Source of the DNA: Escherichia coli
GTDB taxonomy: Bacteria > Pseudomonadota > Gammaproteobacteria > Enterobacterales > Enterobacteriaceae
Strand: one strand, 5' to 3'
DNA: 64,000 nucleotides
NCBI RefSeq assembly: GCF_009931435.1
Contig: NZ_CP043414.1
Shown here: piece after piece, positions 35,130 through 37,443 of the stretch
Position numbering within the stretch: the stretch's first letter is position 1
Layout: each line of letters starts with the position of its first letter
Position numbers and translations under genes: made by a program
The notes under the pieces: model-generated
Told to the model about the DNA's origin: nothing
The model's input: the letters and a program-made list of their open reading frames with translations, nothing else
Database searches by the model: none

Positions 35130-35383
35130 CCGCTTATTCTCAGGGCGGGGCGAAATTCCCCACCGGCGGTAAATCAACTCAGTTGAAAGCCCGCGAGCGC
35201 TTTGGGTGCGAACTCAAAGGACAGCAGATCCGGTGTAATTCCGGGGCCGACGGTTAGAGTCCGGATGGGAGAGAGTAACGATTCTGTCGGGCATGGACCC
35301 GCTCACGTTATTTTGGCTATATGCCGCCACTCCTAAGACTGCCCTGATTCTGGTAACCATAATTTTAGTGAGGTTTTTTTACC
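35130..35383 (+). ncRNA. FMN riboswitch (RFN element) in ribB leader
   Basis: Conserved RFN segments gcttattctcagggcggggcgaaattccccaccggcggtaaa ... ccggggccgacggttagagtccggatgggagagagtaacg; downstream hairpin and T-run. Confidence 0.85.
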
Positions 35384-36037
35384 ATGAATCAGACGCTACT
35401 TTCCTCTTTTGGTACGCCTTTCGAACGTGTTGAAAATGCACTGGCTGCGCTGCGTGAAGGACGCGGTGTAATGGTGCTTGATGATGAAGACCGTGAAAAC
35501 GAAGGCGATATGATCTTCCCGGCAGAAACCATGACCGTTGAGCAGATGGCGCTGACCATTCGCCACGGTAGCGGTATTGTTTGCCTGTGCATCACTGAAG
35601 ATCGCCGTAAACAACTCGATCTGCCAATGATGGTAGAAAATAACACCAGCGCCTATGGCACCGGTTTTACCGTGACCATTGAAGCGGCTGAAGGGGTGAC
35701 TACCGGTGTTTCTGCCGCTGACCGTATTACGACCGTTCGTGCTGCGATTGCCGATGGCGCTAAACCTTCTGATCTGAATCGTCCTGGCCACGTTTTCCCA
35801 CTGCGCGCGCAGGCGGGTGGTGTGCTGACGCGTGGCGGCCATACCGAAGCGACTATTGATCTGATGACGCTGGCAGGCTTTAAACCAGCTGGTGTGTTGT
35901 GTGAGCTGACTAATGACGATGGCACGATGGCGCGTGCGCCAGAGTGCATTGAGTTTGCCAAGAAACACAATATGGCGCTCGTGACTATTGAAGACCTGGT
36001 GGCATACCGTCAGGCACATGAGCGTAAAGCTAGCTGA
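35384..36037 (+). CDS. ribB: 3,4-dihydroxy-2-butanone 4-phosphate synthase
   Basis: ORF track 217 aa [42 protein letters not shown]. Confidence 0.95.
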
Positions 36038-36299
36038 AAACCGCTGCTTAATTTACCGCGTTAATCAAGAAACCGAAGCTATTACTGGCTTCGGTTTTTA
36101 TTTTGCTCTTGTTATGCAAGATGTTAATTCCTCTTCTCTTTCTATGAGAAAATTTCATTAATATCAGGCATTCTTTTCCATTATGATCAAAATCATATAA
36201 TTGTTCCGTTATTATGCGACCATATGAATATATCCGAAAAAGGATATGTGAATTTTATGCGCTAAATGTTTAGTATTGTTAAATATTAAGGGTAAAAGG

Positions 36300-36470
36300 A
36301 TGTTTATCGCCTGGTACTGGATTGTATTGATTGCTCTGGTTGTGGTGGGTTATTTACTGCATTTGAAACGTTATTGTCGGGCGTTTCGTCAGGACAGAGA
36401 CGCACTGCTTGAAGCGCGGAATAAATACTTAAACAGTACGAGAGAAGAGACAGCCGAGAAGGTAGAATAG
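36300..36470 (+). CDS. Hypothetical small membrane protein (one TM helix, charged C-terminus); start could also be 36276
   Basis: ORF track 36276..36470; MFIAWYWIVLIALVVVGYLLHLKRY...; SD-like taaggg upstream of ATG 36300. Confidence 0.4.
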   Translation: MFIAWYWIVLIALVVVGYLLHLKRYCRAFRQDRDALLEARNKYLNSTREETAEKVE

Positions 36471-36527
36471 GGCTTTAGTGAAGCTGGCAGAAGTTGTCCA
36501 TGCGCTGGACAACTTCTGATGTTGCTT

Positions 36528-37301: not shown

Positions 37302-37443
37302 CGACAACTCCTTATAAATCTTTACCTTCAGGCAGATCGTCAAAATAACTGATGATCATCATCATTGTTATCCGGGTTCTTACTCCGCCGAACAAGCGTA
37401 TTGTGAGGATATCAAAATGACACCTTTAGTTAAGGATATCATC

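Follow-up and report, generated by a model that had tools for sequence, protein, structure and literature searches.

What is known of the proteins that YqiD most resembles? AcrZ, MgtS, KdpF and CydX, the small members of the pairs AcrZ-AcrB, MgtS-MgtA/PitA, KdpF-KdpABC and CydX-CydAB, are proteins of about 30 to 60 residues with one transmembrane helix, and AcrZ lies in the membrane N-out/C-in with a cytoplasmic C-terminal segment. Closer still is YqiD of E. coli K-12 itself, whose name goes back to VanOrsdel et al. 2018 (Proteomics 18:1700064; PMC6001520). There, the gene was placed between zupT and ribB at K-12 positions 3183381-3183551 and assigned 56 residues, and the protein was seen by immunoblot after chromosomal SPA tagging, being expressed at its native locus and readily detectable in ordinary LB culture; it was one of the 13 small proteins of that study that had been previously unassigned positives in a tetracycline ribosome-profiling screen. 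The locus number b4756 is used for yqiD in a 2026 paper, and other papers on a "YqiD" concern Bacillus subtilis yqiD/ispA, an unrelated gene. Beyond this detection, the searchable literature yielded nothing on the function, localisation or partners of YqiD, and no report of its fractionation or topology mapping was found.

Orthologues in Salmonella and Citrobacter, with 63-78% identity and the same architecture, carry the source label "DUF4051 domain-containing protein". This name conveys no function, and no DUF4051 model in the Pfam-A copy used responded to any of 16 family members, even at E <= 1. YqiD thus presents itself as a core, strongly constrained orphan with an invariant cytoplasmic motif, encoded beside a metal importer. 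As the gene has been named and annotated and its translation shown since 2018, finding it again has no discovery value; the present analysis adds a start codon settled comparatively, a divergent allele in about 18% of E. coli genomes, a probable functional core, and a palindrome common to the control regions of yqiD and zupT/ygiD.

Identity, start codon and coding status of yqiD

The window, by which we mean the whole stretch of 64,000 nt of E. coli DNA that was analysed, holds an ORF at 36276..36470 on the plus strand, with 56 codons from an ATG at 36300 and 64 codons from a TTG at 36276; its product reads MFIAWYWIVLIALVVVGYLLHL and then KRYCRAFRQDRDALLEARNKYLNSTREETAEKVE. As an earlier note on this DNA had described it, the ORF stands alone in an intergenic region of 490 bp, measured from the stop of ribB (36037) to the stop of the convergent zupT (36528). 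It is E. coli yqiD (b4756), already named and annotated, and not a new gene. Locus, strand relationship and 56-codon ATG ORF are those of K-12, and the product agrees with the YqiD printed in PMC6001520 at 55 of 56 residues, the only difference being F19L (Leu in the window, Phe in K-12). The RefSeq CDS corresponds to window positions 36300-36470 both in strain Z0117EC0005, to which the window interval is 100% identical, and in K-12 C600, and the RefSeq product name under the match is "yqiD: protein YqiD" in more than 4,400 complete genomes. The note, which could not confirm any annotation, was thus right about the gene, and the gene is annotated. Since the ribosome-binding site is identical to that of K-12 and the coding sequence nearly so, YqiD is probably synthesised in the window's strain as well. 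The features of the locus are collected in Table 1.

Table 1. Features of the yqiD locus, in window coordinates
Feature	Position	Strand	Basis
ribB intrinsic terminator, 14-bp stem and T-run	36068..36099	+	terminator scan
Palindrome ATGATCAAAATCAT (site 1) 5' of yqiD; possible operator or promoter element	36183..36196	.	conserved arms
Conserved leader block TAAATGTTTAGTATTGTTAAATATTAAGGGTAAAAGG, includes the ribosome-binding site	36263..36299	+	alignments
Shine-Dalgarno AAGGG, 7 nt before the ATG	36288..36292	+	direct reading
yqiD CDS, 56 codons and stop	36300..36470	+	RefSeq annotation, frame conservation
Predicted transmembrane helix FIAWYWIVLIALVVVGYLLHL, codons 2-22	36303..36365	+	hydropathy, AlphaFold2
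Conserved juxtamembrane motif KRYCRAFRQDRDALL, codons 23-37, predicted cytoplasmic	36366..36410	+	family conservation, positive-inside rule
Variable charged C-terminal tail, codons 43-56	36426..36467	+	dN/dS ~1, low column information
Hairpin, 13-bp stem, between convergent yqiD and zupT	36488..36518	.	terminator scan
ATGAT-N4-ATCAT (site 2), divergent zupT-ygiD promoter region	37352-37365		window scan, conservation

The comparison of loci decides between the two possible starts. Direct reading bears out the Shine-Dalgarno-like taaggg that had been remarked upstream of ATG 36300: TAAGGG occupies 36287-36292, its AAGGG core 7 nt 5' of the ATG, and AAGGG, or GAGGAAGG in distant genera, recurs at equal spacing in all loci. 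All orthologues start MFIAWYW. In the window the frame is open from TTG 36276, and a product of 64 residues could be read from there; we hold this to be highly improbable, as the TTG has no Shine-Dalgarno sequence and the ATG is the start used both by RefSeq and by VanOrsdel et al. (PMC6001520). Above all, a 1-nt indel between TTG and ATG (taaaagg versus taaaaagg) disrupts the 64-codon frame in several species (L005, L006, L007, L011, L024 and L025, among other loci), so that ATG 36300 is the start. Of the 56 to 64 codons given at first for this ORF, the lower figure stands, and the upper one belongs to a frame that is not conserved.

Could the frame be open by chance, and its conservation be owed to a non-coding function of the DNA, be it the zupT 3' region, a regulatory RNA or promoter DNA? 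An ORF of comparable length is easily had in this AT-rich interval: among 2,000 dinucleotide-preserving shuffles of the 490 bp, 20% contained an ATG-ORF with 56 codons or more, and length by itself is therefore weak evidence. In only 0.25% of the shuffles did such an ORF also have a hydrophobic window equal in strength to that of yqiD. The pattern of substitutions speaks against the chance reading. By the Nei-Gojobori method, the median dN/dS over residues 1-42 is 0.059 (296 pairs with dS > 0.1); for 28 distinct sequences of the clade it is 0.054 in the annotated frame. For the two shifted frames of the same sequences, values of 1.36 and 1.76 were obtained, and for the three antisense frames 1.55, 0.15 and 2.45. 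The annotated frame alone is open in 28 of 28 sequences, each control frame having stops in 22 to 28 of them. Variable sites fall on codon positions 1, 2 and 3 in 18, 13 and 37 of 42 cases, respectively, and dS nears saturation between genera, where the protein motif is invariant. Residues 1-42 are under strong purifying selection; in the tail, residues 43-56, dN/dS between genera is about 1. The check proposed in the earlier note, conservation of the frame and of the synonymous/nonsynonymous pattern across Enterobacteriaceae, has therefore turned out in favour of the gene, with the frame intact from the same ATG in all 33 loci examined. With frame-control dN/dS, codon-position variability and the published immunoblot of the protein (PMC6001520) all opposed to it, the chance ORF is excluded as a candidate and its residual probability is close to nil. 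Overall, the locus is best explained, in our judgement very probably correctly, by yqiD (b4756) being a real, translated gene, passed on vertically as part of the core genome of E. coli and of closely related Enterobacteriaceae.

Distribution, alleles and transcription

A megablast search with the window interval found a match in 4,432 of 5,426 complete E. coli genomes. The 994 unmatched genomes do not, as a group, lack yqiD: with the copy from strain Z1323CEC0015 as query, the locus was accounted for in 5,425 of the 5,426, in two haplotypes, the second of which is found in 990 genomes (~18%) and is labelled only "hypothetical protein" in RefSeq. The allele of this second haplotype (L003 4119-4289, E. 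coli Z1323CEC0015) has 69% protein identity to that of the window at a dS of about 1.2-1.6, a distance comparable to that of Salmonella. Since the adjoining ZupT is 100% identical, the divergence of the yqiD sequence would imply an old recombination or transfer breakpoint inside yqiD or at its border.

Outside E. coli, a word-indexed search returned 108 relatives in Escherichia, Citrobacter and Salmonella, and a scan of species-representative genomes gave 30 loci, reaching as far as Intestinirhabdus, an Enterobacter sp., Phytobacter and Kosakonia (37-39% identity); intact orthologues of 56-70 codons are present in Citrobacter, Salmonella, Intestinirhabdus, Phytobacter, Kosakonia and others. 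When 1.84 billion cluster representatives were searched exhaustively with a HMMER profile, just 23 hits were obtained, the confident ones being small proteins of the same type, and no relatives outside the YqiD family; hence the family is small and confined to Enterobacteriaceae. On a single Logan contig (SRR31245077_25353; P0118; L038 1499-1876), a 125-residue ORF joins ZupT residues 1-72 to a YqiD-like segment from residue 13 to the end, with a 6-nt overlap at the junction and the ZupT C-terminus then on the opposite strand, a layout to be expected of an inversion broken within both zupT and yqiD, or of a chimeric assembly.

The two flanks of yqiD differ in constancy. On one side, the gene stands tail-to-tail with zupT in each of the 30 species-level loci; of three divergent relatives, two show this arrangement, and the third contig is too short to tell. 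The position of the hairpin at 36488-36518 is kept in most of the Escherichia, Salmonella and Citrobacter loci aligned; this hairpin is likely a terminator common to both genes. On the other side, ribB is the upstream neighbour in only about 60% of loci; in about 40% of species-level loci, the 3 kb preceding yqiD hold no ribB. The spacer between ribB and yqiD is a preferred place for variable DNA (window 36100-36180; L003 1-3549; L035 393-3589), the insertions being chaperone-usher fimbrial operons or an assT-dsbL-dsbI cluster, and in L003 a fimbrial operon takes the place of ribB upstream of yqiD. The leader at 36263-36299 is nearly invariant (13-species alignment; 29 loci). The non-coding region upstream of yqiD drives a GFP reporter, and natural cis variants alter its expression (bioRxiv 10.1101/2025.06.10.658842). 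Because ribB has a strong terminator of its own, the block upstream of yqiD is kept where ribB is missing, and the reporter is active, yqiD is probably its own transcription unit.

A covarying hairpin in the 5' leader (ATATCC-N6-GGATAT in E. coli; ATACCT-N6-AGGTAT in some Citrobacter) was considered and rejected, as it is absent from the C. freundii complex and weak in Salmonella. Two observations concern ribB. Over positions 36036-36106, which span its stop and terminator hairpin, the Salmonella sRNA family STnc240 of Rfam scores 29.8 bits (E = 0.07), below its gathering threshold of 55; this weak match may represent an RNA derived from the ribB 3'-UTR. An FMN riboswitch (RF00050, 120.9 bits) lies where one expects it, upstream of the gene at 35132-35280, and is annotated by RefSeq in matching strains.

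Predicted architecture of YqiD

The strongly hydrophobic helix followed by a charged tail, as first noticed in the translation, is evident in numbers: the best 19-residue Kyte-Doolittle window, residues 2-20, has a mean of 2.48, no charge precedes the hydrophobic stretch 2-22, and residues 23-33 contain five Lys or Arg and one Asp or Glu. Predicted by AlphaFold2 from the family alignment, the protein is one continuous helix over residues 2-55 (pTM 0.34), with a pLDDT of 85-89 in the membrane part and 61-70 beyond. On hydropathy, charge distribution and this helix together, YqiD would be a single inner-membrane helix with about 34 cytoplasmic residues; its orientation would be N-out/C-in by the positive-inside rule, given the five basic residues directly after a helix with an uncharged start. 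In the model, the helix is predicted to continue into the conserved cytoplasmic motif KRYCRAFRQDRDALLEAR. That a real, small, single-pass membrane protein is encoded here, the central claim of the earlier note, is thus supported by the identity with yqiD, the detection of the SPA-tagged protein and purifying selection, its membrane insertion being a prediction.

Conservation is concentrated at two places. At the N-terminal tip, M1, I3 and W5 are invariant or nearly so across the family, and the juxtamembrane segment K23-L37 is the most conserved block of all, with A28 and R30 invariant and R24, R33 and A35 at least 90% conserved (23 sequences, down to 30% identity). The acidic tail varies, family members ranging in length from 56 to more than 70 residues. 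Residues 1-7 and 23-37 would accordingly appear to form the functional core. Fourier analysis revealed no 100-degree periodicity of conservation (permutation p = 0.5-0.9) and therefore no evidence for a single helix face serving as a packing interface. A zinc or other metal site built from His21 and Cys26 (with Cys20 in Citrobacter and Salmonella) found no support, since divergent members have lost His21 and, in some cases, Cys26. Searches of Pfam, NCBIfam, the PDB, PADLOC and PHROGs with the YqiD family returned nothing above threshold; the PADLOC defence profiles gave 0 families and PHROGs only noise, with E values of at least 0.017.

A small protein with a very hydrophobic N-terminal helix, encoded by a stand-alone intergenic gene, could also be a type I toxin-like, membrane-depolarising peptide like TisB, Hok or Ibs, controlled by an antisense RNA. 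Such toxins are typically patchy in distribution and multicopy; yqiD, however, is a single-copy gene at a fixed locus, present in all E. coli genomes searched but one, with a dN/dS of 0.05. The most conserved part of YqiD is the soluble cytoplasmic motif and not the hydrophobic helix. A type I toxin would be recognised by a cis-encoded or adjacent antisense RNA and by tight translational repression; no promoter-like site is found on the antisense strand inside yqiD, and no Rfam sRNA scores above threshold at the locus. Finally, YqiD accumulates in normal growth, as seen from the tagged protein expressed at the native locus and from the ribosome-profiling signal (PMC6001520). We consider a toxin very unlikely.

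Candidate roles and the closest known systems

What, then, might YqiD do? In the scenario that we favour, transcription would begin in a promoter region of its own downstream of the ribB terminator and end at the hairpin common with the convergent zupT, and translation from ATG 36300 would yield the protein of 56 residues. Residues 2-22 would insert as one inner-membrane helix, leaving a one-residue N-terminus in the periplasm and the basic juxtamembrane segment and tail in the cytoplasm. Having no catalytic capacity, YqiD would then bind a larger inner-membrane protein, as AcrZ, MgtS and KdpF do, its functional determinants presumably being the N-terminal tip MxIxW and the cytoplasmic (K/R)R-x-C-x-A-x-R-Q-D-R-D-A-L. 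By analogy with these proteins, we give an even chance to YqiD acting as such an accessory or regulatory binder. The last step, in which the partner would be the neighbouring metal importer ZupT, is the weakest. ZupT is the sole candidate with support, from adjacency and from a common palindrome, and as the partner it ranges from unlikely to quite unlikely. zupT is far more widespread than yqiD, and ZupT therefore does not need YqiD; moreover, their synteny may reflect no more than vertical descent in a family whose gene order is conserved.

The palindrome, ATGAT-N4-ATCAT, occurs twice in the window, as compared with 0.10 expected copies and 0 of 100 shuffles reaching two, and the two copies bracket zupT. 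In site 1, TATGATC(A/G)AAATCAT at 36182-36196, the arms are invariant in 29 of 29 loci of Escherichia, Citrobacter, Salmonella and Intestinirhabdus, though many of these loci share no related DNA beyond it on the 5' side. The site overlaps a -10-like hexamer, TATGAT (36182-36187), and would lie near -42 of a start at about 36231-36233, which makes it a candidate promoter element or operator. A Dam-methylation switch at the GATC within it is not required, the divergent E. coli haplotype having GATT at this place. Site 2 belongs to the best-conserved block of the zupT-ygiD intergenic region, 51-64 nt 5' of the start codon of zupT, its arms fixed and its centre variable; it is present in 28 of 30 species-level loci, and both sites in 27 of 30. 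Five loci of the distant branch (L031-L034 and L036, from Phytobacter, Kosakonia and two Enterobacteriaceae) have no ATGAT palindrome and share instead CTACTTATAAAGTGGTA about 60-90 nt upstream of the yqiD-like ATG, a sign that another promoter or regulator may operate there. Neither palindrome sequence was found in the searchable literature, and the pair is a previously unreported lead.

Which factor might read these sites? A TCA-N7-TGA box at 37340-37352 (minus strand TCAGTTATTTTGA) directly abuts site 2 and fits the published motif of YhaJ, a LysR-type regulator. The motif was described together with the "ygiD" promoter mutations C50T and T42C/T41C (Palevsky et al. 2016; PMC5031710), and these mutations fit the box only on the minus strand when counted from the zupT ATG (37301), not from the ygiD ATG. 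The YhaJ site thus lies equally near to zupT and ygiD, and YhaJ or hydroquinone might act on zupT too. This neighbouring box accounts, at least in part, for the conservation of site 2; none adjoins site 1. Consensus scores for sites 1 and 2 were 8/10 and 8/10 for FNR, 8/10 and 6/10 for CRP, and 12/19 and 14/19 for Fur, with Zur poor for both; under the 7-1-7 model of Fur they were 10/14 and 12/14, the latter among the four best matches in the window. For Fur, FNR and CRP alike, site 1 is no more than a moderate match. Two readings of the pair offer themselves: yqiD and zupT may be co-regulated through it, or site 2 may be no more than a component of a YhaJ or Fur control region.

A more specific reading makes YqiD a dedicated modulator of ZupT, co-regulated with it through ATGAT-N4-ATCAT as a common operator, on the model of MgtS-MgtA and MntS-MntP. 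It draws on the tail-to-tail arrangement seen wherever the neighbour is readable, on variable DNA always entering on the ribB side and never between yqiD and zupT, on the only two palindromes of the window bracketing zupT and being conserved across genera, and on the position of site 2 upstream of a gene whose regulation has been described as uncharacterised, possibly constitutive (PMC6094482). However, the yqiD-zupT spacer measures only about 10-100 nt and is therefore a small target for insertions, and synteny inside one family is weak evidence. Site 2 adjoins the YhaJ box of ygiD and resembles a Fur site (12/14) in a way that site 1, a poor Fur match (12/19), does not, so that different factors, or arms shared by chance, are possible. 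We regard the dedicated modulator as unlikely. A reading in which yqiD and zupT make up one conserved module, both genes answering to a single regulator that recognises the palindrome and YqiD modulating the ZIP-family importer ZupT, we regard as quite unlikely; if true, the supposedly constitutive ZupT would gain both transcriptional and post-translational control, and a bacterial ZIP transporter would for the first time have a known small-protein partner.

We return, therefore, to the preferred reading of YqiD as a binder of some larger inner-membrane protein, and to how it compares with described small proteins. In layout, an N-terminal transmembrane helix with a charged tail, YqiD is like YpfN/UPF0370 (PF13980), and three members of its family gave sub-threshold hits to PF13980 (best E = 0.011), of the kind given by any sequence combining a transmembrane helix and charge; to our knowledge, YpfN has no RAFRQDRDAL motif. 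With AcrZ, MgtS, KdpF and CydX, YqiD shares its size, the predicted single transmembrane helix and the lack of an enzymatic domain, and with AcrZ also the predicted N-out/C-in topology with a cytoplasmic C-terminal segment. It has no sequence similarity to any of the four, and the likeness extends to a probable mode of action only. In contrast to these proteins, the conserved part of YqiD is its charged cytoplasmic motif rather than the transmembrane helix.
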